From contig JANPLN010000015.1 in NCBI GenBank assembly GCA_031426555.1, positions 128,001-192,000 of the forward strand: a stretch of 64,000 bases of DNA. Reading direction: 5' to 3'. Under the pieces are notes generated by a model. That model saw only the letters and a list, made by a program, of their open reading frames with translations. It was not told the origin of the DNA and searched no databases. This document shows positions 36,587 to 64,000 of the stretch, one piece after another. The translations under genes and the position numbers were made by a program. This DNA comes from Bdellovibrionales bacterium. GTDB lineage: Bacteria; Bdellovibrionota; Bdellovibrionia; Bdellovibrionales; JAGQZY01. Numbering within the stretch: position 1 is the stretch's first letter; the number at the start of each line of letters is the position of its first letter.

Positions 36587-36600
36587 TACTTTCTCCTTTT

Positions 36601-37023: not shown

Positions 37024-37128
37024 GCTTACTCCTTGTTTAGCACCACGGCAAACATACTATGCTAGTATTTTCGTTGAAAGCAAGAAATGAGCTCGTTATA
37101 GTTTAGATGCATATCTCAGGAGGATTTC

Positions 37129-39939: not shown

Positions 39940-39956
39940 GTTTTAACCAGTTAAAA

Positions 39957-41214: not shown

Positions 41215-42042
41215 ATGAAAAAAATACCGTATTTTTTAATGTTGCTTACTTTTGCTTCGACGTTCGGTTGCAGTAAAATTGATCCGGGCAATCGCTCTAA
41301 AACCATCAAAGAGTTGATGGCGAACCGTTATACGGTGAGGTCGTACGACACCGACAAGAATGTTTCCGAAAAAGATCTTAAGATGATATTGGAAGCTGGC
41401 TTGGTATCCCCTTCTAAAAATTTCTTATATCCTTACCGCGCATTTATTCTCAAACAATCCAGTGCAAACGGCAAAGCGGTCATAGATTATCTTTACAAAA
41501 AGGCCACATACTATGACGACCATTGCCTTGCCGAGGGCAATCAAAAAATGAACCACTATCTAACCGCTCTTAAAACTGCGCCAGTCAGCGTCCTTTTTTT
41601 TATGGACGGAGCCCGAGAGAAAGAAAACCCGCTAAACGTGCCTTGGTATGAACTTGAAAGGAGAGCGGCAAGAGACACCATGATTGTGGTCACAGCAATG
41701 ATGCTGCAAGCGGAGCAACTTGGTTACGGCACAACGTTCACGGCGGCCCTCCGTGGCGATTCGCAACTCGTTGGCGACTCCGAGCTTAAAAAGAAGCTGG
41801 GCTTGGACGCAAAACACAATCCGCTAGTGATTCTTTCTTTTGGCACGCCAGTGGCCCCAGAAAAAACTCGTCCAGCCAACTATAAACCATCCCTTGTTAA
41901 ATATGGATGTATCGGAGAGCCGACTTTGGCAACTACGATTCATATTGGAGAAGAAGATGGGAAACCAGCGATGTTACAGTCGATTCACGATGGTCCAACT
42001 CCAAATCGAAAGCCCCGCTGGGAAAACATCAAAGAGCTTTAG
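41215..42042 (+). CDS. Nitroreductase-family protein with lipoprotein signal
   Basis: Lipobox TFGC; NRYTVRSY, SPSKN..YP, AMMLQAEQLGYGT. Confidence 0.75.
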   Translation: MKKIPYFLMLLTFASTFGCSKIDPGNRSKTIKELMANRYTVRSYDTDKNVSEKDLKMILEAGLVSPSKNFLYPYRAFILKQSSANGKAVIDYLYKKATYYDDHCLAEGNQKMNHYLTALKTAPVSVLFFMDGAREKENPLNVPWYELERRAARDTMIVVTAMMLQAEQLGYGTTFTAALRGDSQLVGDSELKKKLGLDAKHNPLVILSFGTPVAPEKTRPANYKPSLVKYGCIGEPTLATTIHIGEEDGKPAMLQSIHDGPTPNRKPRWENIKEL

Positions 42043-42044
42043 CT

Positions 42045-43619
42045 CTAGTGGCCATTCCGATTCAAATACGTCTCTTTAATATTTTTCCAAAATATTTTGG
42101 TAGATTGATGCTGAGGCTCAAAAATCCTGTGGGGGATGATTAGGATTTTGCCTTTTTGTTGTTGAACGATCATTAATGGTGCGTAAATTTTTTCAGGAAT
42201 ACTTAGTGGTGTTCTTACGATTTTGCCATAAGATTTTAGCTCAATATCCTGATGGCCTTGGCAACAACCTAAAAACGTACCTTCGGTTTGCATCTCTGCA
42301 TATCCCAACAAATCCACTGGCAGGCATCGACCGTTCATTAATTCGGAACACCAACCACCGTAAGAATCTTTTTTCAATACGGCTCCTAAACTCCAATCGG
42401 TCACTGAGTGCAGCTTTTCCGTGCTATCTAACTCAATGTTTTTTAATAAAGTATGCTTCTTATTAACAAAACGAAAAGGATGGCCACCGTTTTTTCGAGC
42501 GATGAAGGTCCTTCCATACTTTATCGAAGCACCAAAAAAACTTTCAATATCCCGGTGCGGCGATAAATCCGAAGCTAACTGGTTTTTATCAATCCCGTTC
42601 ATTGGGTCTATTGAAGGTTGAGGGAAAAAGAAGAAAGATTCATTTTTAGATAGTCTTATGGTGCGAAATGAAAATTCGTTGCCAACAAGAACAACAAAAC
42701 CTCCACGCTTAATGTATTGTTCGATTGTATCTATAAACTTTTTTGTAACATATTCTTGAACAGCGCTAAGAAAAACGACTTTGTACTTCTGTAATTGCTC
42801 TCCACTTAAATCTTCGAACTTCGTATTTGTAATAACGGAGGCAGATGATTGTTCATTGGCAAATAACGTGAGCCAGGAGAGCGTAAAATCAAAGTTCTTT
42901 TTGCGAAAGCCATTATCATCGAAATGAAAGTTTGCTTGTGGTCTTTTAAAAGAAAACTCAGTAGGCGCCTCTTTTTTGTTTGGAAAACGCCCCATTTTAT
43001 AAACGATATTCTTTGACATGTAAGCGTAAGGACTTGCGCCGGCATAGATATTATAGGCATTGATTGTATTCCAATCAAAAACGAACAGCACGTCTGCAGG
43101 ATTTTTATCATAAACAATAAAAGGGGCACCAAACGGCTTAACGGAATTTTCATTTTTTCGAACGGCAGAATAAACGCCTGATTTCCAAAGTCGAGAAATC
43201 TCGATAGACGCTACAGATTGCCAATTGCATCCCTTGTCGTAAGAGCACTGAGAATACGTGTTGTTCATTCGGTTGGCCGTAATCTTTGCGACGACTTCCT
43301 TGGGTTCAGGGTACAACCTAACAATCTGCAGGTCCTCCTGAGGCTCCTGCAACATAAAATAGAAATCAACTCTCTCTTCAGGCTGACCTTGATAGGGGAA
43401 AGCGTAACCACGATCGACTTCGTTTGGAAATACGTCTTTAAATTTATTCGCGGATTCTACTTGCTCTAGAGTCGGGTTTTCGTAAAGGAAATCAAAGTCT
43501 GACTTCATTTTCTGATGTGAGACTCGTTCACAGCTCGAATTGAGCAATCCCAAAACCGGCAAGATGAACCAAACAGAATAGGGATAAAAAAAGATTCGTT
43601 GAAATTTATTTGTAAGCAT
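42045..43619 (-). CDS. N,N-dimethylformamidase beta-subunit-like protein, probable lipoprotein
   Basis: WKSGVY, NTINAYN.Y.G.S.Y, FSFKRP, QEYVT, YIKRGG; lipobox NSSC. Confidence 0.6.
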   Translation of the reverse strand: MLTNKFQRIFFYPYSVWFILPVLGLLNSSCERVSHQKMKSDFDFLYENPTLEQVESANKFKDVFPNEVDRGYAFPYQGQPEERVDFYFMLQEPQEDLQIVRLYPEPKEVVAKITANRMNNTYSQCSYDKGCNWQSVASIEISRLWKSGVYSAVRKNENSVKPFGAPFIVYDKNPADVLFVFDWNTINAYNIYAGASPYAYMSKNIVYKMGRFPNKKEAPTEFSFKRPQANFHFDDNGFRKKNFDFTLSWLTLFANEQSSASVITNTKFEDLSGEQLQKYKVVFLSAVQEYVTKKFIDTIEQYIKRGGFVVLVGNEFSFRTIRLSKNESFFFFPQPSIDPMNGIDKNQLASDLSPHRDIESFFGASIKYGRTFIARKNGGHPFRFVNKKHTLLKNIELDSTEKLHSVTDWSLGAVLKKDSYGGWCSELMNGRCLPVDLLGYAEMQTEGTFLGCCQGHQDIELKSYGKIVRTPLSIPEKIYAPLMIVQQQKGKILIIPHRIFEPQHQSTKIFWKNIKETYLNRNGH

Positions 43620-43633
43620 TTTTTGGAATGAAA

Positions 43634-44827
43634 TCAGACATCATCCGAAAAGAAGTGGCGAAAGTTGTCGGGAACAAGATGAAAAAAATCGTTTTTTCGA
43701 ATTAAATCGAATTTCTTTGTCTCAGCTAAAAAATGTCTCCAACGCACTAGATCTTCCGGGCCCTGCAGCCATTGAATCAACCTCTTGTAATGGAGTCCGG
43801 GTAGTTCCCGGTATTTTTCAATTAAAGCGTGCTTCATTTTTTGCGGAAGGATCTCTGCCGATAAATATTTAGGGGAGTCGAGAAAATTAAGTACTAGCCA
43901 CAGCTTTTTATGCGAGCACCAGTCCACAAGTTTTTCAATTTCAAAGATGCTGTAAATTTGTACAGTGCAGACAACCTTAATGATGGCGTTAGGTAGCTTT
44001 TCTTTTATTCGATCTATGGTGGCATTTGTTTTTTCCCACTTCGAGGGTGGGCGAATGTATTCACTGATTTCAGCGTAGCCATCGACGCTGCAGTCGATAA
44101 TAACATTTTTGAACTGGGCAGCTCGATCGATAAAGCGATCGTCAAAAAAGGAAAGATTTGTGCTCCATCGAACTGTCATATTCTTTGCTGCGCTAGTCTC
44201 TATTGCGAAGTCGAGTAGGGATAAGTGCGATTTAATAAGAGTGGGTTCGCCACCTAGAAAATAAATTTCCTCAGCATACGGGATGATCATTTTGAGCTCT
44301 TCGAAAAATTTAGGAAATTTTAGTAGGTCACTTGTCGCTTTTGAGTAAGCTAACCCAGCTTCTTTATCTTCCCAACCCTGCGAAATTGACTCCGCCATAA
44401 GTGCTGTGCTTGTGATTGAATCACACATTCGGCATTTTAAATTACAATTGCTGCCCAACTTGATATCCCAGGAGAGAGGTTTAAAGGCAAGCGAGTTGGT
44501 TTTTATTCTGTCCAATGTTTTTTCAAGGTATCGGTTTCCGTCGTGTATGCGCTTACTTCGAAATCCCAAAGATTCATGCTTCCAGCACAGATTACAACGT
44601 TCGTCTTGAATGCCATTGAGCAAATTCCTTCGCAGAGAATGCATATACTCGGATTCGTAAGCATCTTTAAATGTATGGCCCTTAAGAATATCGAAGGGTT
44701 CACCCTGATCATCACGAATAATGCCTTCGGCATGGCAACAGGCTTTCATTTTGCCGTCCATTTGGTTGCAGATGTGAACAAACGGCAGAGTGCAGAAAGT
44801 TTTTTCATTAACAAGTGAGGACATCAT
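43634..44827 (-). CDS. N-terminal twitch-domain radical SAM protein #1
   Basis: FCTLPFVH..G..KACC, CNLCWKHE..G..SKR, CNLKCRMC, GGEP, SVDG. Confidence 0.9.
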   Translation of the reverse strand: MMSSLVNEKTFCTLPFVHICNQMDGKMKACCHAEGIIRDDQGEPFDILKGHTFKDAYESEYMHSLRRNLLNGIQDERCNLCWKHESLGFRSKRIHDGNRYLEKTLDRIKTNSLAFKPLSWDIKLGSNCNLKCRMCDSITSTALMAESISQGWEDKEAGLAYSKATSDLLKFPKFFEELKMIIPYAEEIYFLGGEPTLIKSHLSLLDFAIETSAAKNMTVRWSTNLSFFDDRFIDRAAQFKNVIIDCSVDGYAEISEYIRPPSKWEKTNATIDRIKEKLPNAIIKVVCTVQIYSIFEIEKLVDWCSHKKLWLVLNFLDSPKYLSAEILPQKMKHALIEKYRELPGLHYKRLIQWLQGPEDLVRWRHFLAETKKFDLIRKNDFFHLVPDNFRHFFSDDV

Positions 44828-44945
44828 TGGATAATGATACTTTCTCTTTTTTTGAGCAATTGGAGATGCGACATAATGCGTGGCGTTTTTCGTTAGGGGT
44901 TGGTGTAATGAGTGAGAGTCTGTATTCTTTGACTAGGAAAGCCGC

Positions 44946-46202
44946 ATGCGATCAGAATTTTTAAAATTTACTAATGATTCATTACGAAAATCCAAGGTCG
45001 CCTTTATCATTTGGGACACCTACACGAACGGCAACAAAGCTGACCCCCAGATGGTAGACCTTTGCTTATCACTTATAGAGGTTCACCTCTACTTTATGAT
45101 CGATGGAAAAAGCGACAAAGTGAATCTGTTCAAAAGTGGCCATCAAACTTTTGCCAAGATCCGAGGCCTGGGTTACTCGTATGTTCTATGCCTCCATCCT
45201 GATACGCTGATAAAATGTGAAGGCGCCGTGGAAGAGTTGCTAGCACAGGTTCATCGGGATCCTCATCGTGGCGGTTATGGTTATAAAAAAGGGCACAAGC
45301 TTTTCGGTACGATTCTCTTGAATTTGGAACAGTGCGAACCGTCGGAAATTGATGGCTATTTAAAAACGAACTCTGTGTGTAGTCTTGTAGAAAAATACGT
45401 CTGTTCCGTTGCGGATAATTCCCAAAGGGAAATTCACTCCTCTCGAGCTGATTTAGCAGCGGGCGCAACCCAACTCGTGATTGTTCAGGAAGACACCGCA
45501 CTTAAAAAGCATTTGCAAGAAGGGTTCAATGTTTGTTTTGCCTTTAATACAGAGTCTTACGATGATATCGAAAAGTTTGAAGGGTTGCTCTCTGCCGAGC
45601 ACGTTGTTGGCTTTGCATCAGGCTTCAAATTGAATAGGATCGCTTGGAAGAGTAGGGAGACCTGTCTTAAATTGACCTTTGTTGATTTGAACGAAAACGC
45701 CTTAACATTTAAAAAAAGAATGTATACGGAATGGGATGGCTTTGATCTGCCCGCGTGGTTTCAAGCGAATTTTGCTGGGCAGCCTTTCTTTTACGAAAAA
45801 ACAGAAAGCCACTTTCAGGCAAGTTGGCAAAGGGAACTGTCGTTGTGGGGCGGGCAAAAAAATTTCGCCGAGCACTGGTCTTGGTTTAGAAATCTCCCTG
45901 TTACTTTTGAAAGAATAAATTTTTTGTTGGAGCCCGGTAAGTTGAGATTTATTCTTCAGCAAACGGAGAGTTCGCTTCTATGGTACAGTAACCTCTGGAA
46001 CAATGAGTATGTGGCCCATCTCTACGGGGTAAAACAGCTTGCTTCAGCGCAGCTACAATGGTTGGAAAAGGCTATTCCCGAAGATCTTTCTGTAACTCTT
46101 TTTCAAGATCCAATCAGAGTCGGCCCAAAAAAAATCTATTTGAGTGGCCAGCCTTCGATTGAGGCCATCAAAAGACTAAACGAAAGCCTTTCGGGTTTTT
46201 AA
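44946..46202 (+). CDS. Hypothetical protein, paralogue of the C-terminal part of the 48887-51109 protein
   Basis: Shared motifs FNTE, D.N...L..KK..Y..WDG.D.P, W..EL..WG, LWYSN. Confidence 0.75.
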   Translation: MRSEFLKFTNDSLRKSKVAFIIWDTYTNGNKADPQMVDLCLSLIEVHLYFMIDGKSDKVNLFKSGHQTFAKIRGLGYSYVLCLHPDTLIKCEGAVEELLAQVHRDPHRGGYGYKKGHKLFGTILLNLEQCEPSEIDGYLKTNSVCSLVEKYVCSVADNSQREIHSSRADLAAGATQLVIVQEDTALKKHLQEGFNVCFAFNTESYDDIEKFEGLLSAEHVVGFASGFKLNRIAWKSRETCLKLTFVDLNENALTFKKRMYTEWDGFDLPAWFQANFAGQPFFYEKTESHFQASWQRELSLWGGQKNFAEHWSWFRNLPVTFERINFLLEPGKLRFILQQTESSLLWYSNLWNNEYVAHLYGVKQLASAQLQWLEKAIPEDLSVTLFQDPIRVGPKKIYLSGQPSIEAIKRLNESLSGF

Positions 46203-46925
46203 GTAAGCTAAATTAAACCAGCGTCGAAAAGGATGAGTGTTTTCAAAAGCCGACAACAACTCTCTAATATACTCTTTGTGAAAATTTCCATGCAGGCACT
46301 CTACAGTAATATGAAATCGATCCTCGTTGGATTGGTTCCACACCGAGTGGCGATTTGATAAGTCCAAAATATAAAATCCCCCGGGTTTTATGGGAATCAC
46401 TCCAAACTCTTCCATAGCAAAACGGCAGTCTTTTGGGGCGTTTAGGGCAACGGACAATGGGCCAAGACCTTTAGTGTTACGGTCACGATGGGGGCCTACA
46501 AATCCACCCGGCTCTACCAGCATAAAGCGAATGCGTTTGTATTTTTCGGCGGGGAAGATGTTTTGAAAATAGTTGGTTGCCACTGGACACAGCTTTGCGA
46601 TTTCGGTCCAGCGGTAGGTATTGGAGTCTTCCTGGAGATTGTAATCAAAATGACACATTGTTTTTTCGGCAGAAATCCCATGCAGGCAAATGGATTTCCA
46701 CCCTTTGTGTTGACTGGTCTCGCGATGCTCAACAAAAAGATGCTTTATACTTTTGGCCTCTCGTAGAATTTCATCTGTCGGGAAATCGCGCATAAAAAAC
46801 TCAAACCAGGGCATTTGTGATGGCGGAGTTAATTTGAGATTTTGGTCAAAAGGTAAATCCCCAAATGAGGATGGTCCGACTTTTTTGCTGAAGAAAAATT
46901 TTTCTACGTCTTCAATGGGCGTCAT
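46176..46925 (-). CDS. Aspartyl/asparaginyl beta-hydroxylase-like Fe(II)/2OG oxygenase
   Basis: GWKSICLHG, WTEIAKLCP, RIRFMLVEPGG..PHRD, HSVWN.S..RFH. Confidence 0.8.
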   Translation of the reverse strand: MTPIEDVEKFFFSKKVGPSSFGDLPFDQNLKLTPPSQMPWFEFFMRDFPTDEILREAKSIKHLFVEHRETSQHKGWKSICLHGISAEKTMCHFDYNLQEDSNTYRWTEIAKLCPVATNYFQNIFPAEKYKRIRFMLVEPGGFVGPHRDRNTKGLGPLSVALNAPKDCRFAMEEFGVIPIKPGGFYILDLSNRHSVWNQSNEDRFHITVECLHGNFHKEYIRELLSAFENTHPFRRWFNLAYLKTRKAFV

Positions 46926-47439
46926 AGGGCTCCCGCATTACGTCGGAATTCATGAGTAGAACCGCGAAAAGGCTCACGAAAAGACAGAGCCATTCAACAT
47001 GAATATGGAAAGACGTGTATTTTAAAAGCCCAAAAAAGGAGGCTGCGAGAAATCCAAAGCAAATGAGTCTGGCAGAACCTGAATTGGTAAAAAATAATTT
47101 CAGTTTATTAAGCATGCGTAGAGTAAGTTCTGGCGCTAAACTAACGACGAGGTGAACATAAAAATAGAGGAATAGACTCCAGTTTTGGAAGGCAAAGGTT
47201 TCTTTCCACACAAAAAACAAACTCGCACACGAAAAAATTCTTAAAAAAAGACTTGCTGGGAAGAGCGCAACTAAAAAATAACCGCCCCAAAAACAAGTCA
47301 TTTTTAGGCTGAGGATTCTCCAGTCTATCATAGACTGTGCCAAATTTCTCCAATGCACGATCGTAGCTAAATGCACATGACCGGCGAGAAAGGCGAAGTA
47401 GATGGATAAAAAAAGATGGGCCTGAGGTTTAAGATGCAT
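46912..47439 (-). CDS. Polytopic membrane protein of unknown function
   Basis: Highly hydrophobic 175 aa; overlaps neighbours on the same strand. Confidence 0.55.
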   Translation of the reverse strand: MHLKPQAHLFLSIYFAFLAGHVHLATIVHWRNLAQSMIDWRILSLKMTCFWGGYFLVALFPASLFLRIFSCASLFFVWKETFAFQNWSLFLYFYVHLVVSLAPELTLRMLNKLKLFFTNSGSARLICFGFLAASFFGLLKYTSFHIHVEWLCLFVSLFAVLLMNSDVMREPYDAH

Positions 47440-48427
47440 TTTTTGGAGTCCTTATCAGCCAAACAAAGGGTGGCAGGCGAAACAGCTGCTTTAAAGCTGC
47501 AAATACTTTTCTTGGCCGGTCGAAGGGGGAGAGGAAGAAGACGATCGCAACCGGGGCTGCCATTGCAGAAAAATTAACTCCAAAAAATAAAAAAGTTCCA
47601 AGATGAAAGATAAGCCGTAAAAAGCCAAATGTCCTGTGCAAGTTAAGTCGAAAGGCAAAGTGGAAGGAAGCAAGGTGTATCCAAATCGTTGCCATATAAG
47701 AAACAAAGCTTAACCATGGGTATTTATAAAAAGCGTCGCGCCACGGGGCAAACTGGTGGTAGAAAATAGCTTCGCGCGCAGAAATATTAGTGAGTATCCA
47801 CCGATCCAGTTGGCATTGAAGGTTTGAGTCGAAAGCGCAACGAAGAATACTTGTCACCTTCCAAAAACCGCTCATCGCATAAAACGTGCAAACCATCAGC
47901 TGGACAAACCAGACACTGAGTAAAATTTTATGGCGATGAATCCTTTGACTCTGCGAAGGCGGCCCGCGCCCTGAAAGGGGTAGCAGGCAAAACAGCATAG
48001 ACATCCAAAGAAAGCCGTGGTGGTTATTACTAAAATGTCCGTCGGAATTAATGATCGCGACCATAAAAAAAACAGCCATCGCCTGAAGCAGACGAACCAA
48101 TTGGGTCTCAAAGAAAAAGACCAAAAATAGAGAACTAAAAATCCACGCCCATAAAATAGTCGGTACTAAATACTGCAGCTGTGCCGGCTGGAGTGGGCCA
48201 AACACCCAAAGCGGTCTATAGAACACTTTGTTTCCGTAAAGAGACATAAAGTTATGATAGGAGCTTACGGCGATGATGAATGAGTAGCCGTAAAACGCCC
48301 GTAAGAGAACAATCAATTTTCGAAAGTTGGTAGAATGAGCAGCAAAAAGGCCCTCATCGAGATAAAAAAACTTTTGGCCTCGTAAGGAGCGTATGATTAT
48401 TTTTAGGTAGTTATTGATTGGATTCAT
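47429..48427 (-). CDS. HTTM-like integral membrane protein (copy 1)
   Basis: Multiple TMs; GHFSNNHHG, FYAMSGFWKV, IFHLGTFLFFGVNF. Confidence 0.65.
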   Translation of the reverse strand: MNPINNYLKIIIRSLRGQKFFYLDEGLFAAHSTNFRKLIVLLRAFYGYSFIIAVSSYHNFMSLYGNKVFYRPLWVFGPLQPAQLQYLVPTILWAWIFSSLFLVFFFETQLVRLLQAMAVFFMVAIINSDGHFSNNHHGFLWMSMLFCLLPLSGRGPPSQSQRIHRHKILLSVWFVQLMVCTFYAMSGFWKVTSILRCAFDSNLQCQLDRWILTNISAREAIFYHQFAPWRDAFYKYPWLSFVSYMATIWIHLASFHFAFRLNLHRTFGFLRLIFHLGTFLFFGVNFSAMAAPVAIVFFLSPFDRPRKVFAALKQLFRLPPFVWLIRTPKNAS

Positions 48428-48878
48428 GTTTTCCTAAAAATTTTTCGTCGATGAGTTCGTTCTTCCAAAAAAAGTCTATGGGATTAAATAACTGCTCACG
48501 GATTTCCCAAACCACAACATCGTGTGGGTGGTCTAAAGTAAATAGTCGATCAAATTCGAGGACGACATTCTTTCGAGCCTCTTTGTCACCGGCATAGTCC
48601 TGCACTTTTTTCGTAAATTCATAAATTCTTATTCGCGGGAACATTTTTTCGATAAAAATGGATCCTCTTTGAGGAGGGTTGAATATTTTGTTGTCTATTT
48701 GATGAATGTAGATTTCGCGGTTAACAAGGTACTTGTCTGGCTGAGTGTGAAAAATCCGCCAGGTGTAGGCGGGGTAAAGATTGATGTTGCCAGTGATCCA
48801 TTCGAAAAACATGGAAAAAATTAATTGTAAAACTACAAACAAAACCATGAAAAACTTTATTCGTTTAAGGTCTTTCAT
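48411..48878 (-). CDS. Membrane-anchored partner of the HTTM-like protein (copy 1)
   Basis: N-terminal TM followed by YPAYTWRIF; directly upstream of the HTTM-like gene. Confidence 0.6.
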   Translation of the reverse strand: MKDLKRIKFFMVLFVVLQLIFSMFFEWITGNINLYPAYTWRIFHTQPDKYLVNREIYIHQIDNKIFNPPQRGSIFIEKMFPRIRIYEFTKKVQDYAGDKEARKNVVLEFDRLFTLDHPHDVVVWEIREQLFNPIDFFWKNELIDEKFLGKHESNQ

Positions 48879-48886
48879 TTTAGCAC

Positions 48887-51109: not shown

Positions 51110-51194
51110 TGAAAGTCGTCCCCCGGTGTTTCTGTGAAAAATAGTAGAGCGATTTTAGAAAAAATGATATTAAATTTAAGCGAAGGGAGCGTAT

Positions 51195-54930: not shown

Positions 54931-54968
54931 CGGTTGAAAAGTAACAACAGTATGCTAATTTAAGTCCC

Positions 54969-55931: not shown

Positions 55932-57128
55932 ATGAAGGCCATGCAGGTCACTCGTCAAACCAGCCCAACAATATGTCCGTTACCGTTTATGCACACCTAC
56001 ATTACGGCGAATGGTTCAGCCGTAGCCTGTTGTGAGTCACAGGAAAGTATTTTGTCGCCGTCAATCAACAACTTTCAGGCGATGTGGAACTCGCAGAATT
56101 ATAAAAATTTGCGTCAGTCGCTTTTGCGCGGTGAAAAACCCGAAGTGTGCCGTAAATGTTGGTCCAATGAAGAGATCGGAATGCCTTCCAATAGAGAGGA
56201 TATGTGGCGCGATCTCGAAAATGGTCTTTTTGGTGATCCGAGCCTCGCAGTGCAAGAAGATTTTTTGGTGAGCGAAACACCGGCGGCCATCGAGATCAAA
56301 ACCAATAACCTCTGCAATCTCAAGTGCCGAATGTGCCATCCCGAAAGCAGTCATCGCGTGGGAGAAGATAAAGAAATCATTGTGAAGTACAGAAAGAACC
56401 TACCTTGGTCGCAAACTGTGTTGAGCTCGGGTCAGACTGTGGGGGCGCTAATTTCTGAAGGGGATGCATTTTTTGAAAAATTATCAGTTGTTCAATACTC
56501 GGGTGGCGAGCCTCTTATCAGCGACGAGCAGCTCGAGTTGACGCAAAAATTAATGCAATTTGATCCTGGAAAAATTCATTTGCGCTACTCAACAAATTTG
56601 ACTCATCTGAGCTATAAGAAAACAAGCTATCCCGACATCTGGAAAAATTTCCAAAAGGTCCATGTGAAGGTGAGCATCGATGGTGTTAACGACGTCTACG
56701 ACTACATTCGTGTTGGTGGTCATTTTGAAAAAGTTGTGGAAAATATCAAACGACTGCAAGACTTTCAGCTCCCAAACCTGCAGCTGAGCATCGGTTTTAC
56801 GACTCAAGCGTACAATGTATTTCAGCTCCCAGAATTTCTCGAGTATTTCGAAAAAATAGTGCCGCGAAACTCGATCACCACCCATCTACTGCATTCACCC
56901 AAAATGATGATGGTGGATGTTTACCCACCGGCTATTCGAGAACGTCTGATTCACAAACTGCAGAGCCGGAGAGCTGACATTAACAACGTGATTGCGGTTC
57001 TCCAAAAATCCACACCAGAGGCTTCGTATTGGACTGCTCTTTGTAATTATACGCAAGAATTGGAAAGCAAATATTCCGTCAGTTTCGGCTTTCATTCTCT
57101 GCTCGACAAGTACTTAGCGGATTATTGA
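55932..57128 (+). CDS. N-terminal twitch-domain radical SAM protein #3
   Basis: ICPLPFMH..NG..ACC, CRKCWSNE..G..SNR, CNLKCRMC, GGEP, SIDG. Confidence 0.9.
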   Translation: MKAMQVTRQTSPTICPLPFMHTYITANGSAVACCESQESILSPSINNFQAMWNSQNYKNLRQSLLRGEKPEVCRKCWSNEEIGMPSNREDMWRDLENGLFGDPSLAVQEDFLVSETPAAIEIKTNNLCNLKCRMCHPESSHRVGEDKEIIVKYRKNLPWSQTVLSSGQTVGALISEGDAFFEKLSVVQYSGGEPLISDEQLELTQKLMQFDPGKIHLRYSTNLTHLSYKKTSYPDIWKNFQKVHVKVSIDGVNDVYDYIRVGGHFEKVVENIKRLQDFQLPNLQLSIGFTTQAYNVFQLPEFLEYFEKIVPRNSITTHLLHSPKMMMVDVYPPAIRERLIHKLQSRRADINNVIAVLQKSTPEASYWTALCNYTQELESKYSVSFGFHSLLDKYLADY

Positions 57129-57129
57129 C

Positions 57130-58344
57130 GTGTCGAAAGATTATTCCTGTCACTATTTAGAAAAATCGCTAACGCTTTTGCCCACCTCCGAAGTGCGTCC
57201 GTGCTGTCGTTTTGATGTGAGTCGCTATGATGTTAAAGATTTCACCTGGGATCATAAAAAACCCCTCGAAGAATTTTATACAAGCGCGCAATACAAAACG
57301 ATTCGACAACAAAGCCGAAGCGGCCAGCCCGTGGCCGGTTGCCACCGTTGTTACCGTGAGGAGGATTTAGGGATTAAAAGCATGCGGCAAAAAGATTTTC
57401 CAGGAGATGCTGCAAACAACTATGATGGAACCCTCAAAATTTCTATGATCGAGCTAGGCGTGGGTCGAATTTGTAATTTGAAATGTAGAACTTGTGATCC
57501 TTACTTTAGTACAAAGTGGGAGGCCGATGCGTTGGTCGCCAATAAGCCCATCCCCGACAAGGCATTGGATGTGGATCTCGATGCTCTCGATGTACAATTT
57601 TTTAGAAATACGCGATTTTTGAAGATCACTGGTGGTGAGCCTTTTTATCATCCGGCTTTTGAGACGCTCATTCATCGCCTGGTTCAAGAGGGACTGTCCG
57701 CAAATATTGACATCGAAATATTTAGCAACGCTACGAAAGTTCCTGTCGAGGTTTTTGTGGAAGCCTTGAAGCGTTTTCGCTCAGTAACGATGACTCTCAG
57801 CATCGACGGTTTGGGAGCTACGAATACATATCTTCGCCATCCAAGTCGGTGGAAGGACATCGAAAAAAGCGTCGATTTTTGGCGTGCTCTCAGGAGCAGC
57901 CAGACAGCACTGAAAGTTCAATTCGCAGTCACGGTTTCGGTTTTTAATATTTTAAGTCTCTTCGAATTATTCAATTGGCTCTACAAGATAGAAACAAACC
58001 AACCGGGGATCATTATTCAAAATGTACAGGACCCAACTCACTTAAATGTGTCCCATTGGCCGTTGCTCATTCGGAAAACGATTCAGTCGAAATTCTTACA
58101 GCAAAAAGAAACCTTCTTCGCAACCCATGTCGTAAACGCGACGCTTGCAAAAAGGATCGGGACCATCGAAAAAATGTTAGAATCTGCCATCGAACAAAAA
58201 AACGTCAGCGAACAGTTTTGGCAAGAAACCCTTGCATTAGATAAAGCGCGGAATGAATCCTTTGCTAAGGTATTTCCAGAGCTTTTTCAAATTGTCTCGA
58301 GCTCACTAAATGAAGAGTTCACCGAGTTCCGGAGCGGCATCTAA
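57130..58344 (+). CDS. N-terminal twitch-domain radical SAM protein #4
   Basis: SCHY..VRPCC, CHRCYREE..G..SMR, CNLKCRTC, GGEP, SIDG. Confidence 0.9.
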   Translation: MSKDYSCHYLEKSLTLLPTSEVRPCCRFDVSRYDVKDFTWDHKKPLEEFYTSAQYKTIRQQSRSGQPVAGCHRCYREEDLGIKSMRQKDFPGDAANNYDGTLKISMIELGVGRICNLKCRTCDPYFSTKWEADALVANKPIPDKALDVDLDALDVQFFRNTRFLKITGGEPFYHPAFETLIHRLVQEGLSANIDIEIFSNATKVPVEVFVEALKRFRSVTMTLSIDGLGATNTYLRHPSRWKDIEKSVDFWRALRSSQTALKVQFAVTVSVFNILSLFELFNWLYKIETNQPGIIIQNVQDPTHLNVSHWPLLIRKTIQSKFLQQKETFFATHVVNATLAKRIGTIEKMLESAIEQKNVSEQFWQETLALDKARNESFAKVFPELFQIVSSSLNEEFTEFRSGI

Positions 58345-59619
58345 AAGACGTGTCTGTCGTTTTCGATCAAGTCTGTCGGTGTAGTCCCGAAAAGCAGGAA
58401 TGAGGTGCGACCAGTCTCTGCCTTGCATATGTTGCAAATGATCTTTTATATGATTCTGAATATTGTTGAGAGTCGCTTGGGGCCATTTTTTTTCGGAAAG
58501 TATCTTTTCCTGATAAGCGAGAATTTCCGACTCTGCCTGATTTTTTAAATTTTGCGTAAGGACCTGCGTATTTAAAAACGCCGGCGCGGTGACTCTGTGG
58601 GAGTGGAACCGAACACCCCTGTTGGTAAAGTAGTCGATGATTTTTGGGAGCTGGAATACATTGTAGACCTGAATCGTGCAGGCCACAGCAATTTCTTCGA
58701 ACACGATATCGCTTCGCGATTGGACCTCATCGAGGTGCCTCTCAATGGTGGAAAACTGCGCACCCGTGCGAATATAATTATAAACATCGTGAATTCCATC
58801 AATGCTCGCGTAAATCGACACCGATTTAAATTTCTTCCAATAGTCAAAAACCGAGACACCTTTAAAATTTAATGTCGTTAAATTTGTACTGTACTTTAAA
58901 CGAATGTGCGGAGCGCGTTCCGAAAGCAGGTCTAAAATGCGGTAATGAAGTGGATCCATCAACGGTTCTCCACCAGCAAATTCAATGAGATCCAAAGATT
59001 CAGCCATTTTAGCAAAATCAATCCACCATTGCTCTTGATCCTGAAAACCAGAAATGAGCGGTTTTTTGGTTACATTTTGTTTTTCGGCCGATGAATAAGC
59101 CCACTGATTATACTTTTTCATAAGATCAGAAACTTCGTTCCACTCTGAGGCCCAGGAGCTTGAGTCCACGGGGTGGCACATTCGACACTTAAGGTTACAC
59201 AAGTTACTCAGCTTGAGTTCGATGGTCTTAGGCAAGTAGGGAACATGTCCAGAGGGATCTACCTGTTTTAACAACTGCGAATAATTGGACCATCGACTTC
59301 CCGGAAACGTGCGCAAAGCGCGCTGTCGCATGGAGCGTGTGCCCATGCTTTCCAGAGTCCAGCAGTCTTGGCACGCCTCGGGCTTTTCTCCGTTCAGAAG
59401 CTGTTTTCTAATCTCTTTGTACTGCGGGCTGTTCCATAACTCCACAGCCGAAGAGTCTCGTACATTGGATATGGGTTCGCTGCGGCAGCAAAGTTTAAAG
59501 GTGCCCTCTGTTTTGGTCGCAAGGTGGGTGAAGGGATAAATGCAAAAGGTGGCGCTTTTTTCGGCGTCCTTCAAAACCGAATTCACTTCTGTAGCAGTGG
59601 CGTCTGGTGTTTGCAGCAT
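58306..59619 (-). CDS. N-terminal twitch-domain radical SAM protein #5
   Basis: FCIYPFTH..G..KLCC, CQDCWTLE..G..SMR, CNLKCRMC, GGEP, SIDG. Confidence 0.9.
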   Translation of the reverse strand: MLQTPDATATEVNSVLKDAEKSATFCIYPFTHLATKTEGTFKLCCRSEPISNVRDSSAVELWNSPQYKEIRKQLLNGEKPEACQDCWTLESMGTRSMRQRALRTFPGSRWSNYSQLLKQVDPSGHVPYLPKTIELKLSNLCNLKCRMCHPVDSSSWASEWNEVSDLMKKYNQWAYSSAEKQNVTKKPLISGFQDQEQWWIDFAKMAESLDLIEFAGGEPLMDPLHYRILDLLSERAPHIRLKYSTNLTTLNFKGVSVFDYWKKFKSVSIYASIDGIHDVYNYIRTGAQFSTIERHLDEVQSRSDIVFEEIAVACTIQVYNVFQLPKIIDYFTNRGVRFHSHRVTAPAFLNTQVLTQNLKNQAESEILAYQEKILSEKKWPQATLNNIQNHIKDHLQHMQGRDWSHLIPAFRDYTDRLDRKRQTRLLDAAPELGELFI

Positions 59620-59719
59620 CCCCAAAAAGTCTCAGCTTTCCGAAGCCCTGACAAGGAGTTTGCTCGACATCTTCTTTTTAGATGCATGGAGCCAGCTCAC
59701 GATATAAAACGGAAGAGGT

Positions 59720-60745
59720 ATGAAAAAGCAATTAATGCGAGCTTTTTTGCTCGTGGCATCACTGGTCTTAGCAATTGCTTTGCTTGAAAGCTATTTCAGA
59801 ATTTTTGGCAGAGACAGGTTTGATATCACAATGCACCTAAAGCGTTCTTCACAGCCCGAAGACTTGCGGGTGCAACTCGAAAAAAATACTCACCATAAAT
59901 TTGATTTCCTCCATGAGGGCAAATTTGTTTATCGACAAGAGATCGAGACGGATGAGTGGGGGCGACGAAAATCCTACGGACCTAGGAATTCAAAATCCCT
60001 TGTTCTATTTTTTGGTTGCTCCTATACATTCGGGTCAGGCCTTCAGCAGCACGAAACCTTGCCCTATCAATTTAGCAAAACGACGCAAATTGATTCTCTG
60101 AATTACGCCTTGCCGGCCTACGGCCCCCATGGACTGCTTCGCCAGGTGGAGGTTTTACCCCTGGGTGAGCAAATTCCTTCGACCTACTCGTCGGTCTCTG
60201 CGGCCTATGTATTTTATGGCTTCCAATGGCGTCGAGCCACTGGTGGAATTGGATGGGTTGCAAAAATGGGAGGGAACCATCCCTTCTATAAATTGGATCC
60301 GACGACCAATGCGATCTCCTATCAAGGCCGTTTTGCCGAAGCGCAACCAGTTAAGATGTGGTTTATAAACCTGTTTAATAAGCTTCATTTGCTGCATTAC
60401 CTTCCTCAGATATGGGGTAACGATCGCGTAACCAAAGACGATCAACTTCTTTTTTGCGGTATGGTGAACAAAACCCAGGAACTTTTGCAAGAAAAGATTG
60501 GCCGCGAATTTAAAGGATTAAAAATAATACATCCCTCTTTTGATCACGAAAAAATGTGGAGTGAATTTCTTTCGGGCGCCAAGGAATGTTTTTCTCCGCA
60601 GGTCGAGCTCATCGAAATTAAAATGCCTGGGAGCAGAGAGCAATGGGCCATCGATAGTGTATTGGAGGATCATCCCAATAGTGATTTTAATAAGCTGTTG
60701 AGCGATCTTCTTGCGCAGCGATGGCAGGGACAATTAGAAAAATAA
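59720..60745 (+). CDS. Membrane-anchored SGNH-hydrolase-like protein
   Basis: N-terminal TM ending LLESYFR; FFGCSYTFG, NYALPAYG, C-terminal DHPN. Confidence 0.65.
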   Translation: MKKQLMRAFLLVASLVLAIALLESYFRIFGRDRFDITMHLKRSSQPEDLRVQLEKNTHHKFDFLHEGKFVYRQEIETDEWGRRKSYGPRNSKSLVLFFGCSYTFGSGLQQHETLPYQFSKTTQIDSLNYALPAYGPHGLLRQVEVLPLGEQIPSTYSSVSAAYVFYGFQWRRATGGIGWVAKMGGNHPFYKLDPTTNAISYQGRFAEAQPVKMWFINLFNKLHLLHYLPQIWGNDRVTKDDQLLFCGMVNKTQELLQEKIGREFKGLKIIHPSFDHEKMWSEFLSGAKECFSPQVELIEIKMPGSREQWAIDSVLEDHPNSDFNKLLSDLLAQRWQGQLEK

Positions 60746-61478
60746 AAGTAATCAATTGCAGCTGCATTTGAAAGTCGACCCCCAAAATAAAGGCTGTCCC
60801 CAGATGAAAAAAGATTAGCAGCCACCCCCAAAAGAAATCGAACTTTGGCATAAATAAAATACCAACCGTAGAAAGCTGAAGACCGATGAGCGCCAGCCAA
60901 AGAAGTCCCGACAGGTAATAGTGATTTTGCAGAAATATCATGAGGTCGATATTGGCCATGACACCCTCACAATAGGTGCGAGCGATATGACTGGGCAGCG
61001 TGGAGGAAACATCTTGAAACCAGTGGTCGGCATGATTTAAAAAAAGTCCTCTTAATTTCCACATGCCAGAGCTACAATAAATACTCAAACAGAACGCTCG
61101 CAAACATAAAAAAATCTGGGCAGAGTTCAAAACTGATAAGGGTATTATCAAAATAAAATGCGCTGCTAGCCAGCCGAAGTGATCGTGGCTAAAGTCGCCA
61201 AATGAATACGTCGAGTAGATCAAAAGCAACCAGGCAGAGGCAGTCATTGTACGAAAAACGAGAAGTCTTGGTACGAAGGCGGTGATGAGCTGTAGACCGA
61301 GCGCCAGAAAATAAAAAACTTTTAAAGAAGGGGGTTCAGCAATAGTCATTTGGGCTTTTTCGTAAATTTGCGACCGCAAAGTCAGCAAAACTAAAAACCC
61401 CAAGGTGTAGAATATGGATAAACACCGTTCGTGCAAACTCGTTGTTTTAAAATCTAAAAATTTCGTCAACATTTTCAT
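60687..61478 (-). CDS. HTTM-like integral membrane protein (copy 2)
   Basis: GDFSHDH, IYCSSGMWKL, FFHLGTAFILGVDF; multiple TMs. Confidence 0.65.
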   Translation of the reverse strand: MKMLTKFLDFKTTSLHERCLSIFYTLGFLVLLTLRSQIYEKAQMTIAEPPSLKVFYFLALGLQLITAFVPRLLVFRTMTASAWLLLIYSTYSFGDFSHDHFGWLAAHFILIIPLSVLNSAQIFLCLRAFCLSIYCSSGMWKLRGLFLNHADHWFQDVSSTLPSHIARTYCEGVMANIDLMIFLQNHYYLSGLLWLALIGLQLSTVGILFMPKFDFFWGWLLIFFHLGTAFILGVDFQMQLQLITFIFLIVPAIAAQEDRSTAY

Positions 61479-61872
61479 ATTTCTCTTTTGGATTTAAAAG
61501 AATATATCCTGCAAGTGGTAATTTTATTTTGTAGATTCGTAAAGGCGTTAGACCCTGACTCTTTAGATGCGAAAATAAAAAATCTTTCTCGGTGATAGGC
61601 TCCCCTTGTGCAACTTGCGAGGCCAATCTTTGCAAGTTATACCAAGTCTCAGATTTTTTTAAGGAGGAAGAGCTGTAGAGTTCCAGGCCGCGGGTCCCCT
61701 GGACTTCCAAATCATAAAAATTCCAATGAACGGAACTTTTGGAAAACAACGACCAATCAAAAAAGGGCCCCCATTCAGACGTATTTTTCCAGGGCAGTAC
61801 TACTTGCGCCATGAAAACAAAACTAACAAAAGTTAAGGCGGGAGAAATTTGGCGAAGGTTCCAGTTTTTCAT
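61447..61872 (-). CDS. Membrane-anchored partner of the HTTM-like protein (copy 2)
   Basis: N-terminal TM followed by GPFFDWSLF; ATGA-coupled to the upstream gene. Confidence 0.6.
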   Translation of the reverse strand: MKNWNLRQISPALTFVSFVFMAQVVLPWKNTSEWGPFFDWSLFSKSSVHWNFYDLEVQGTRGLELYSSSSLKKSETWYNLQRLASQVAQGEPITEKDFLFSHLKSQGLTPLRIYKIKLPLAGYILLNPKEKYENVDEIFRF

Positions 61873-63116
61873 TTCCGATTTACTTTCTCTGCGGTTCTCT
61901 GAGCGAGATGCTCCCACAATACGGTGTGGCCTTTGTCGTTGAGATGACAACAATCATCTGTAAAAACCGATTCGGCTGTGTTTTTAAAAATCGACGCAAG
62001 GTTAATGACTGGTAAACCAGCTTGTTGAAGCTCCCGCGCTTTTTTATGCAATAACAGGTAGTTGGTTTTTCGTTCATTGAGTTCATTGGTATCCGTCTTG
62101 GCTAAAAAACCCAATTCTTCTGCCGTCAGTATTTTTTCGACCAGATAGGGTGCTGGCTGGAGCGCATAAATGGATGTGACGTTCAACGACCGAGCCATGG
62201 TTTCTTGTTGCCGTATAAACTTAGACCAAAGCTGTAGGTTCGTCTTTTTGAGTTGCGATGAATGAGCTGACTTCCATAGACCGTCCCTGGGTTTATTGAT
62301 TTCTTGCAAGGTCAAAAAAATTCTTTGCCAGCGTTTTAAAATTTGCGTTTTAAGGATGGTGCTCACAACAGAAAACCCTGCGCCATAGTTTTGTAGCGCT
62401 TTCTGTTTTTGGGAAATTTCCAAATAATCGCTAAAAAGATGCAGCTGTTTCCTTTTTGTCTCGTAGTGATCGTTGGAAAAATAGAGTCCTGAAACCAAGG
62501 ATGTTGGAAAATAAGGCGGATAAATGGAAGAAGCCCGGGGATGCGCTTCATTGACGCCTTCGATATTGATTGAAACGTCGAGCTTGTCTAAAAAAAACGA
62601 CGCGATGACAAACTGCTGAGGTTGTCTGTAGCCAGAATAGGCGAAGTTGAGGATCTTGATTTTTTTAGAACGTTTGAGCAGTCGATTGAGGTTGTTTTTA
62701 AAAACGTTATTTTTTTCCTCAAAGTAGTGCGCTTGCGTTGCCACTGATCCGCCAAAAATTCCCACGTAAAGGGTGTCGGGTTGTTTTTCAAGATTCCAAA
62801 GTTCGGGTCTTTCCACAAAGCCGTAAACGAGGGTTTCTAAAGATTGGTTTTCTTGAGTAAGAGGGCGGGAGTAACCAAAAAAAGGATGGGGGTATTTGGG
62901 ACTTTGGCGATTGAGGTTTGTAGCGTCTCCCAACTTGTCAAAAAGCTCCTCGGCAGGACTGCCCTCGCTCAGGTCATTGAGAAGCAGCTGTAGCTTTTTG
63001 TCCAGGCGAGGCTCTAAAAAAAACCGACAACCAAGCTCGGCCAAGAACGCGCAAATACATAACGAAAGACAAAATAAAAACATTTTACGACGCAAAGATC
63101 GCACGCTCGGAGCCAT
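61869..63116 (-). CDS. Membrane-anchored SGNH-hydrolase-like protein
   Basis: TM ending LAELGCR; HPFFGY, GIFGGSVA, NFAYSGYRQPQQ, EGVNE, DDCCHLNDKG; start inferred. Confidence 0.65.
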   Translation of the reverse strand: MAPSVRSLRRKMFLFCLSLCICAFLAELGCRFFLEPRLDKKLQLLLNDLSEGSPAEELFDKLGDATNLNRQSPKYPHPFFGYSRPLTQENQSLETLVYGFVERPELWNLEKQPDTLYVGIFGGSVATQAHYFEEKNNVFKNNLNRLLKRSKKIKILNFAYSGYRQPQQFVIASFFLDKLDVSINIEGVNEAHPRASSIYPPYFPTSLVSGLYFSNDHYETKRKQLHLFSDYLEISQKQKALQNYGAGFSVVSTILKTQILKRWQRIFLTLQEINKPRDGLWKSAHSSQLKKTNLQLWSKFIRQQETMARSLNVTSIYALQPAPYLVEKILTAEELGFLAKTDTNELNERKTNYLLLHKKARELQQAGLPVINLASIFKNTAESVFTDDCCHLNDKGHTVLWEHLAQRTAEKVNRK

Positions 63117-63199
63117 ATCGTATCTTACTGAGAAGAAGATGAAGGGAGCAAGATATCTTGACCGTTGCCACCTTGCGCTGATTGGGCTAGGATTCCCCC

Positions 63200-64000
63200 A
63201 TGGCGACTCAACAATCTTCGACTTTTTGTTCCGTGCCTTGGACGCAGCTTGCGACGAACTCGTCAGGTTACTATCGAGTGTGTTGCAATGCGCTGCCCGT
63301 GAAGAATCTTGTTCGCGATGGGCAGGGAAAAGTTTTAACAGTTTACAAAAATACCTTCGAAGAGGCATGGAACGCGCCGACGTACCTCCAAATTCGCAAA
63401 GAGATGCAGTCCTCTGTTCGTCCGGAAATGTGCACTCGCTGTTTTCGTGAGGAGGACGCCGGAGTTGAAAGTGCACGGCAAAGATGGAATCGCCGCTGGC
63501 CCGAGCCGGCGCTTCAGCAGAAAGCAGAAGGGGCAGCTCCTGCAGTTAAGTATGTGGATTTGCGCTTAGGAAATCTGTGTAACTTAAAATGCAGAATGTG
63601 CAATCCCTACTCCAGCAGTAAGTGGGTCGAAGAGTGGAACTCGGTTGCTGGAGTTAAAGGTTTAGTGCCAGACAGCTCGCTGTCTCCCGCAGAAGCGGAG
63701 CGCCTGCAAAAAATGGACTGGCCCGAGGACGAAAAAACCTGGGTCCATTTATTGCCAATTCTCAACACCGTCGAAGAAATATATCTTACCGGTGGCGAGC
63801 CATTTTTATCTTTGAAGCAAATCGATCTTTTGCAAAAACTGGTAGATAGCGGGCGCTCGCGCGAAGTGGTTATTAAATACAATACCAATGTGACGATCTT
63901 CCCAGAAAAAATCGTCGCTCTTTGGGCAAATTTTAAGACGGTTCGACTCAATTTAAGTATCGATGGCGTGGGCGCTACGAACGATTATATTCGTTTTCCT
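63200..64000 (+). CDS. N-terminal twitch-domain radical SAM protein #6 (partial, runs off the window)
   Basis: Manual translation MATQQSSTFCSVPWTQLATNSSGYYRVCC..CTRCFREEDAGVESAR..LGNLCNLKCRMC..GGEP..SIDG; no stop before 64000. Confidence 0.88.
   Translation, partial: MATQQSSTFCSVPWTQLATNSSGYYRVCCNALPVKNLVRDGQGKVLTVYKNTFEEAWNAPTYLQIRKEMQSSVRPEMCTRCFREEDAGVESARQRWNRRWPEPALQQKAEGAAPAVKYVDLRLGNLCNLKCRMCNPYSSSKWVEEWNSVAGVKGLVPDSSLSPAEAERLQKMDWPEDEKTWVHLLPILNTVEEIYLTGGEPFLSLKQIDLLQKLVDSGRSREVVIKYNTNVTIFPEKIVALWANFKTVRLNLSIDGVGATNDYIRFP

Follow-up and report, generated by a model that had tools for sequence, protein, structure and literature searches.

The 64,000-nucleotide stretch analyzed here (the window, G000:C15:128001-192000) comes from a Bdellovibrionales genome of 3.14 Mb (100% complete, 72 contigs), and its right end carries an island of radical S-adenosylmethionine (SAM) enzymes and other modification enzymes. 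We conclude that the locus is real and that it is probably a hypervariable glycan-tailoring locus with uncharacterized chemistry, whose constituent families are already catalogued. In the reading we favor, at a probability of roughly 0.55, the island is a conserved core with swappable blocks that would assemble and radically edit a variable surface sugar, of which we infer both the product and the carrier. This reading draws on gene content, predicted folds, a fixed chromosomal site, co-occurrence and selection. A preliminary description, made from the sequence alone, had proposed an undescribed pathway acting on a surface molecule; glycan-related folds and neighbors indeed argue for a surface sugar, while the target molecule is one that we only infer.

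The island comprises 22 tightly packed open reading frames (ORFs) at 41215-64000 and continues for about 11 kb past the window with 11 more, up to 75090, which gives 33 ORFs in 33,876 bp. The tight packing of mostly modification enzymes and the run past the window had both been described correctly, and the enzyme families named at that time were recovered, but glycosyltransferase (GT) folds of the GT-A type had been missed. The features are given below in window coordinates; numbers above 64000 are extended coordinates (contig C15 position minus 128000; L001 numbering is extended minus 62000). The family scan of window ORFs covered 32286 onward, TM denotes transmembrane helices, PLP pyridoxal phosphate and Fe/2OG iron/2-oxoglutarate, and G301 is the genome of a sister species.

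41215..42042 (+): nitroreductase-family protein, peripheral (PF00881, E 3.6e-19); another gene in its place in G301
42045..43619 (-): DMFA2_C-domain protein, peripheral (PF20254, E 2.7e-21); absent in G301
43634..44827 (-): N-terminal-twitch radical SAM 1 (NF033640, 316 bits)
44946..46202 (+): 418-aa homologue of the GT-A and methyltransferase part of the 740-aa protein (21-22% in the alignment; family profile E 3.4e-11)
46176..46925 (-): Fe/2OG Asp/Arg-beta-hydroxylase-like enzyme (PF05118, E 5.8e-14)
46912..48893 (-): membrane module 1, proteins of 175 aa (3 TM), 332 aa (5 TM, HTTM-like lead) and 160 aa (1 TM) (TM scan, Atlas lead)
48887..51109 (-): 740-aa fusion of Fe/2OG hydroxylase, GT-A fold and class I methyltransferase fold (PF05118; structure model)
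51195..52079 (+): distant Kdo-hydroxylase-like oxygenase (PF11004, 26.8 bits)
52051..53445 (-): twitch radical SAM 2 (NF033640, 260 bits); translation probably begins downstream of the ORF start
53291..54373 (-): amidinotransferase, FHAAN instead of FDAAN, GHLD His and AIHC Cys kept
54370..54930 (-): 186-aa protein with phage relatives (phrog_28122, E 2.9e-9)
54969..55931 (+): short fold-type-I PLP enzyme (FSLxKG), class I-like
55932..57128 (+): twitch radical SAM 3 (NF033640, 287 bits)
57130..58344 (+): twitch radical SAM 4 (NF033640, 259 bits)
58306..59625 (-): twitch radical SAM 5 (NF033640, 375 bits)
59720..60745 (+): membrane-anchored SGNH-like protein (GCS...EDHP; motifs)
60687..61953 (-): membrane module 2, proteins of 263 aa (5 TM) and 168 aa (1 TM) (TM scan; no family match)
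61869..63476 (-): membrane-anchored SGNH-like protein (GGS...DCCH; motifs)
63200..64000 (+): twitch radical SAM 6 (NF033640, 350 bits), truncated at the window end; the complete gene reaches 64414
64442-66656 (+): two core radical SAMs (64442, 65511)
66656-67825 (+): third SGNH-like protein
67822-67971 (-): DUF5989 microprotein ending FIYTIF
67968-69785 (-): NodU-type carbamoyltransferase
69792-70181 (-): 129-aa membrane protein
70138-71562 (-): core twitch radical SAM, 474 aa (NF033640, 425 bits)
71676-72839 (+): core methyltransferase-like protein
72817-73905 (-): radical SAM
73959-75090 (+): frameshifted twitch radical SAM (contig C15 201959-203090, L001:11959-13090)

Radical SAM enzymes and their partners

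Eleven island genes encode radical SAM proteins. Seven of the products score 259-425 bits against NF033640 (N_Twi_rSAM; cut-off 170 bits), an eighth is split by a frameshift and three have C-terminal cysteine sets. The six twitch enzymes claimed for the window (43634, 52051, 55932, 57130, 58306 and 63200) all pass the cut-off at 259-375 bits; they keep CxxxCxxC together with an N-terminal C..CC..CxxC set and are old paralogues with 23-33% mutual identity. In 60 orthologues of the 474-aa core protein, the auxiliary cysteine set ahead of CxxxCxxC is invariant. NF033640 matches above the cut-off number 11 in this genome and occur at least once in 79 of 301 sampled genomes of the phylum, and our literature search returned no paper giving this family a function or pathway. 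RiPP (ribosomally made, post-translationally modified peptide) maturase families scored far below cut-off throughout against the island radical SAM proteins, and Twitch/SPASM matches were weak. The split gene at 73959-75090 has an A8 run where G301 has A7, and its phase variation is possible; the only contig found to cover it is identical and may be the source of this DNA. A/T runs of at least eight number 19 in the 33.9-kb island and 880 in the 3.14-Mb genome, about twice the density.

The glycan-related folds were recognized by structure modeling. Two core genes, here termed DGDN, lie 44 kb downstream of the island (C15:246666-248325), and the model of the DGDN protein has a GT-A fold (predicted local distance difference test, pLDDT, 92.6; VIA Z 10.8). 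All seven of its Foldseek matches at E<=0.001 are GTs, and D60 and D62 of its DxD motif are invariant in 44 rows; the GT profile found no significant match among PDB sequences. Within the window, the C-terminal 477 residues of the 740-aa protein gave a model (pLDDT 89) with two domains: residues 1-246 of the model form a GT-A domain (VIA Z 9-10.7 against GT-A chains), and residues 247-477 a class I methyltransferase-type domain (Z 10.8 and 8.3). Its top Foldseek match is the capsid GT of chlorovirus PBCV-1 (E 3.7e-3), and none reached E 0.001. The three-part fusion of hydroxylase, GT-A and methyltransferase is kept in 12 other full-length homologues, and the 418-aa protein (44946) is, as judged by homology, a distant copy of its GT-A and methyltransferase part, from which its fold is assigned. 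The label of the core methyltransferase-like protein comes from motifs and an Atlas lead; its profile matched neither PDB sequences nor the fusion profile (probability 0.2%).

The amidinotransferase, as previously assigned, has StrB1, which acts on an aminocyclitol, as its best PDB match (E 7.5e-34, full-length sequence match), with SxtG as a distant match. StrB1/AGAT amidinotransferases use a Cys-His-Asp catalytic triad. This triad is incomplete here, Cys and His being kept and Asp replaced by His (FHAAN for FDAAN), and the replacement recurs in five genomes (this one, G301, G305, G308 and L188). As the gene evolves under a dN/dS (ratio of nonsynonymous to synonymous substitution rates) of 0.04, we regard the enzyme as a maintained variant. 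It lies at most two genes from the PLP enzyme, amid twitch genes, in G000, G305, L181, L188 and L059, but not so in G205 or L048. The PLP enzyme is of fold type I and class I aminotransferase-like, and its earlier assignment, like those of the nitroreductase and the DMFase-like protein, agrees with the fold and family matches (fold type I, PF00881, DMFA2_C); the latter two genes are missing from the sister-species copy.

Other early assignments fared less well. Two of three proposed Fe/2OG-type domains proved to be Asp/Arg-hydroxylases, whereas the third has a weak Kdo_hydroxy match of 26.8 bits, and a KdoO identity of this oxygenase (51195) was rejected at 20 bits against the NCBIfam cut-off of 300. 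For the HTTM-like 332-aa protein, HTTM occurs on 13% of the members of its Atlas neighbors, with no Pfam match at E 10 and no PDB match, and a lipobox scan called neither 41215 nor 42045 a lipoprotein. As arguments for a surface molecule, the KdoO, HTTM and lipoprotein members are unsupported or unproven, their tests being weak or failed. The two SGNH-like proteins do carry the motifs on which their naming is based, while their family matches are weak; GCS...xxHP is present in 8 of 9 rows of the alignment. Neither the SGNH profile nor the membrane-protein profile matched PDB sequences significantly, and membrane module 2 has no family match. G184 has a pair resembling membrane module 1, and a pair of a small one-TM and a multi-TM protein appears to recur beside the core (L204:8957-10214 in G093, L016:10583-12029 in G271).

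Past the window end, the carbamoyltransferase, the DUF5989 microprotein and the third SGNH-like protein form a cassette. The DUF5989 protein, presumably the equivalent of SxtK, has 49 residues, one TM helix and the C-terminus FIYTIF. An FxYxxF end is found in 30 of 30 fetched homologues, 25 of which have a carbamoyltransferase within 1.5 kb, and the SGNH-like neighbor retains the Ser and His motifs. The FxYxxF hexapeptide is the acyl-tyrosine shuttle motif of DltX and PatA (PMC12148441); that paper never mentions 'carbamoyl'. Since motif, neighboring carbamoyltransferase and SGNH motifs coincide, a carbamoyl shuttle across the membrane is, by this analogy, likely. In the whole genome only 2 of 9745 ORFs end in FxYxxF, and the second is the sole MBOAT gene (G000:C42:54196-55563, ending FIYFRF), on a contig that also holds 5 of 15 GT2 matches and a Wzy_C gene; the cassette has no MBOAT partner. 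A complex prediction for the SGNH-like protein (66656) and the DUF5989 peptide scored 0.00 and is no evidence either way. In the literature searched, neither this system nor DUF5989 was found described, but Schultz 2023 may already mention the cassette.

Conserved core, fixed site and selection

The island had been called an orphan and a single pathway. It is not an orphan, and a single pathway is not supported: we find a fixed core, partly at other loci of this genome, and swappable modules. The core consists of the radical SAM proteins 64442, 65511 and 70138, the methyltransferase-like protein and the two DGDN GT-A proteins. Among 20 regions read from other genomes, chosen from the top of the NF033640 listing of the 301 phylum genomes, 14 encode an orthologue of the 474-aa twitch protein (70138) at 61-88% identity. 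Altogether, 26 genome loci carry this protein, all in metagenome-assembled genomes, and 25 are titled Bdellovibrionales, Bdellovibrionia or Pseudobdellovibrionaceae. Within 10 kb of it lie 64442 in 22, 65511 in 21, the methyltransferase-like gene in 16 and a DGDN gene in 12 loci. Phylum-wide, the DGDN family occurs in 19 of 301 genomes and the methyltransferase-like family in 27; of the 15 genomes that have a core twitch orthologue, 14 carry the former and all carry the latter. The core genes thus co-occur even when unlinked, and the co-occurrence anticipated across Bdellovibrionota and phages is found.

The site itself is fixed. In G253, G274 and G301 the island sits, as here, between a 64-aa gene and a deaminase-rpsU-dnaG-rpoD run (we take the genes after the deaminase to be rpsU, dnaG and rpoD), and the island of G305 has the same right border. 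The right end of the island is conserved; the left parts of the congeners G253 and G274 differ and hold NeuB and CMP-transferase genes, and gene order in G301 equals that of G000. Other relatives carry GT2, PMT_2 and nucleotide-sugar genes, and some add SET, fatty-acid desaturase and hydroxylase genes. One such variant (L011:2623-12915, in G150) combines a SET-domain protein, TauD, desaturases, hydroxylases and B12-type radical SAM homologues. In G305, one island (C1:745513-774880; L197, L198) holds four GT-methyltransferase paralogues, and NF033640 matches number 25 across the genome.

Between G000 and G301, 29 of the 33 ORFs could be paired, of which 27 have a dN/dS of 0.04-0.22 and two have saturated dS. 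In the 11 genes of 43634-54930 dS is 0.98-2.6 or saturated. The remaining 18 have values of 0.23-0.94; of 11 flanking genes, 10 lie at 0.24-0.56 and one near the left border reaches 1.28. The SGNH gene 66656 has diverged to 46% identity between neighbors at 87-90%. Both the high dS of the left block and this divergent gene suggest an exchange of old alleles, as at surface-antigen loci. Several genes of the left block score better against viral than bacterial proteins.

Strand switches separate 14 of 30 gene pairs within the island and 171 of 558 on six other contigs; an operon reading was rejected on account of these 14 switches. Members of the gene set are split over at least six loci of this genome. 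Besides the island and the DGDN pair, we noted a satellite at G000:C30:138280-151791 (L123) with a twitch radical SAM gene, two nitroreductases, SDR, desaturase, TauD and two hydroxylases, several of these families being common to phage blocks. Scattered members comprise a twitch paralogue adjoining two GT2 genes (C27:13527-17737), a twitch gene with Methyltransf_24 (C59:56128-58190), a radical SAM pair (C68:4774-6890), TauD with a hydroxylase (C35:756-2775) and a lone twitch gene (C15:211851-213248). The left flank (32286-40790) is ordinary, with a class I/II aminotransferase and an AAA_26 and Aminotran_3 fusion, which we take to be biotin genes, followed by YceI, MscL, an M16 peptidase and, as its last gene, a methyltransferase with the raised dS of 1.28. 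Rfam gave no match in 36000-64000, repeats are paralogue echoes or chance, and predicted promoters (31 observed, 27.8 in shuffles) and terminators (19 and 23.0) are at shuffle level.

Counterparts in phages

The preliminary description had pointed to a likeness to large aquatic phage genomes, and the core genes are indeed found in aquatic phages. The core twitch protein matched 104 IMG/VR stretches, of which the best 80 loci (52-70% identity) were counted. They hold a DGDN GT in 73, the methyltransferase-like gene in 74, the 65511-type radical SAM gene in 76 and the 64442-type in 27, and tail-associated families lie within a 10-kb flank of 21. GTs were counted with the c6 profile hidden Markov model (HMM) because the c10 HMM contained fusions and also matched methyltransferase. 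Accessory genes also recur: PLP enzyme in 14 of the 80, nitroreductase in 9, carbamoyltransferase in 6, hydroxylase and GT-methyltransferase in 4 each. Viral blocks are co-oriented (strand switches in 101 of 1188 pairs), whereas bacterial regions are scrambled (253 of 631). A GT-like pair in 26 of the 80 viral loci is specific to phages and not found in this genome. So is a highly conserved 74-aa protein with the motif HHNSxNWY, encoded between methyltransferase and radical SAM genes in 57 (e.g. L101:7610-7834), for which neither Pfam nor a comparison with this genome and 41 bacterial loci gave a match.

Among 50,697 GenBank phages, only the cultured Ralstonia phage RsoM2USA (MG752970.1) has DGDN GTs. 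Its ORF355-347 encode, in this order, a fibre-like protein, a small protein, two GT-like proteins, an unknown protein, a GT, a twitch radical SAM protein, a second GT and a methyltransferase, all annotated as hypothetical, and the block adjoins ORF356 near the tail sheath (PMC8504454). It thus resembles the island in combining both DGDN GTs, a twitch radical SAM gene and the methyltransferase-like gene in one tail-linked run. It differs in lacking the three core radical SAM orthologues among 32 genes scanned and in adding two GT-like genes not found in this genome. A separate block 90 kb away, ORF199-203 (L130:8991-14567), encodes a carbamoyltransferase, a twitch radical SAM protein and three proteins with SGNH-like GCS motifs, and a nucleotide-sugar dehydratase-like gene (ORF358, L129:11242-12219) lies between tail sheath and ORF356.

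A tree of the core protein groups the bacteria by genus and places 9 of 10 viral rows in a single clade (100/99); its outgroup branches are long, and the grouping is read without a root or a direction of transfer. Since bacterial genera and the viral clade are separate, the island is not a recent prophage remnant, and this candidate was rejected. The IMG/VR contig L042, with mixed strands and a core protein grouping with bacteria, may be a bacterial fragment.

Proposed pathway, alternatives and known systems

In the pathway we propose, the two DGDN proteins and the GT-A/methyltransferase fusions would attach sugars and cap them by O-methylation, possibly on residues that the fused Fe/2OG domain had hydroxylated beforehand. 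One fixed, conserved sugar unit would come from the three core radical SAM enzymes, and accessory twitch paralogues would act at other positions by epimerization, oxidation or dehydration, for which related enzymes that work on aminoglycoside sugars are a precedent. A block of radical SAM, PLP enzyme and amidinotransferase would replace a hydroxyl by an amine and convert this to a guanidino-type group. The carbamoyltransferase would place its group on the tyrosine of the FxYxxF microprotein, and a membrane-anchored SGNH protein would take it over from there and transfer it beyond the inner membrane. Exchange of blocks would diversify the coat much as happens at O-antigen loci, and the carrier may be a surface protein or lipopolysaccharide.

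Several observations weigh against a surface sugar. The island encodes no flippase, polymerase or ligase, and the Wzy_C and GT2 genes of this genome are on other contigs. The GT-A fold is common to nucleotidyltransferases, which fill many VIA rows of the DGDN model, and the in-window GT-A domains may be inactive: with TPG (48887) or HPD in place of DxD, catalysis is not assured. The PLP enzyme has no PF01041 match, so that a DegT/DnrJ sugar aminotransferase identity was rejected; since it is class I-like instead, a simple ketone-amine-guanidine route is weakened. The amidinotransferase occurs in 6 of 31 genomes searched, this one included, and in just 3 of the 80 viral loci. Phage versions of the system are soluble, with no access to the membrane steps. 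The carbamoyl cassette is far more widespread than the core (105 of 301 genomes), and a carbamoyltransferase, two hypothetical proteins and a GDSL protein also form a set in the saxitoxin cluster, a small-molecule pathway (PMC2684587); hence it is a recruited module that alone does not prove a polymer target. Finally, some of the genomes counted for co-occurrence also went into the GT and methyltransferase profiles, and kin are not independent in these counts.

Some of these points would suit a diffusible aminocyclitol, aminoglycoside-like or guanidinium small molecule made without a polyketide synthase (PKS) or nonribosomal peptide synthetase (NRPS) scaffold, an alternative we consider unlikely. 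Its amidinotransferase would be that nearest to StrB1 and SxtG, the NodU-type carbamoyltransferase has its counterpart in the four-gene saxitoxin set (PMC2684587), and NeoN and BtrN, a radical SAM epimerase and dehydrogenase, act on sugars in the neomycin and butirosin pathways (PMC10991966). However, family scans recognized no transporter, resistance gene or regulator among the 33 ORFs, and neither NRPS condensation domains nor modular ketosynthases nor a multidomain synthase bearing an acyl carrier protein (ACP), such as SxtA, were found in the genome. As previously stated for the window, no NRPS, PKS or obvious precursor gene was recognized, and no scaffold synthase turned up in the downstream part of the island or the rest of the genome. 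Alternating strands, the split over at least six loci and phage copies within a tail operon also speak against it.

Phage DNA-modification systems suggest another product. Class I-like PLP enzymes, radical SAM enzymes, Fe/2OG enzymes, GTs and carbamoyltransferases all occur in phage base hypermodification, and T4Dam is among the matches for the methyltransferase fold of the 740-aa model. That the core glycosylates DNA or RNA bases and then edits them by radical and PLP chemistry against nucleases is nevertheless a distinctly faint prospect: no nucleotide kinase, thymidylate synthase, TET/JBP or DpdA was found in the island, phage copies lie beside tail rather than replication genes, and the bacterial form has membrane-anchored SGNH and shuttle genes.

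We judge it improbable that the radical SAM enzymes and hydroxylases modify proteins, peptides or lipids directly, in a RiPP-like or lipid-tailoring manner with sugars incidental. Twitch/SPASM domains are common in peptide maturases, the SET, desaturase and hydroxylase genes of relatives and the conserved 74-aa viral protein would fit, and the membrane pairs presumably resemble SdpAB. Yet the maturase scores are those given above, GT genes track the core, the 74-aa protein is unmatched in bacterial loci, and the island gaps hold no precursor-like small ORF, though a precursor may be encoded at a distance. That the block is piled-up phage cargo without a common pathway is very improbable, since its scrambled orientation, frameshifted gene and virus-like left-block genes are outweighed by purifying selection on 27 of 29 paired genes, a core tree following bacterial genera apart from 9 of 10 viral rows, the co-occurrence of unlinked core genes and the lack of phage structural or integrase genes in the island.

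If the surface-sugar reading is right, radical sugar editing would be a routine way to vary a surface coat and not just an uncommon step in antibiotic pathways, and the widespread carbamoyltransferase/DUF5989/SGNH set would extend acyl-tyrosine shuttling to carbamoyl groups. NF033640 gains a testable substrate class from its association with GT-A proteins, with a site that is fixed and hypervariable, and with a phage in culture, and the gene set is a source of new C-H functionalizing sugar enzymes. In a bolder version, which we regard as doubtful, an undescribed chemistry of protein glycosylation would be common to predatory Bdellovibrionota and jumbo phages. There, the fusion would prime, glycosylate and cap surface fibres, twitch batteries would edit the sugar one carbon at a time to give an antigenic-variation code, and an MBOAT-free carbamoyl-tyrosine microprotein shuttle would finish outside the membrane.

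The known systems each share a part of this arrangement. The PBCV-1 capsid glycosyltransferase protein also carries a methyltransferase domain, and the enzyme (PDB 2p6w/2p72) is the top or near-top Foldseek match for the DGDN and 740-aa models, but at 10-13% identity the likeness is in fold only. O-antigen and capsule loci likewise exchange contents at a fixed site, and differ in the flippase, polymerase and ligase that the island lacks. The twitch domain of NeoN, BtrN and HygY is C-terminal. NeoN and BtrN perform radical SAM chemistry on sugars or aminocyclitols (PMC10991966), and HygY is counted with them; these enzymes act singly in antibiotic clusters, and we liken them by chemistry, not sequence. 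The DltX/DltD and PatA/PatB shuttles also pair a one-TM microprotein ending in FxYxxF with a membrane-anchored SGNH-like protein (PMC12148441); here, a NodU-type carbamoyltransferase would take the place of MBOAT as donor enzyme. Saxitoxin sxtI-J-K-L and sxtG match in carbamoyltransferase, two small hypothetical proteins, GDSL protein and amidinotransferase (PMC2684587), whereas island and genome lack an SxtA-type ACP multidomain protein. Radical SAM genes together with an amidinotransferase gene also form an interchangeable module in Campylobacter phages CP220/CPt10 (PMC2853527) and a cluster among GTs in cyanophage S-SCSM2R (PMC12801897), both described without a function. Neither appears among the tblastn matches of the core twitch protein or GT, and the resemblance to the island is one of radical SAM genes and amidinotransferase in an interchangeable block.

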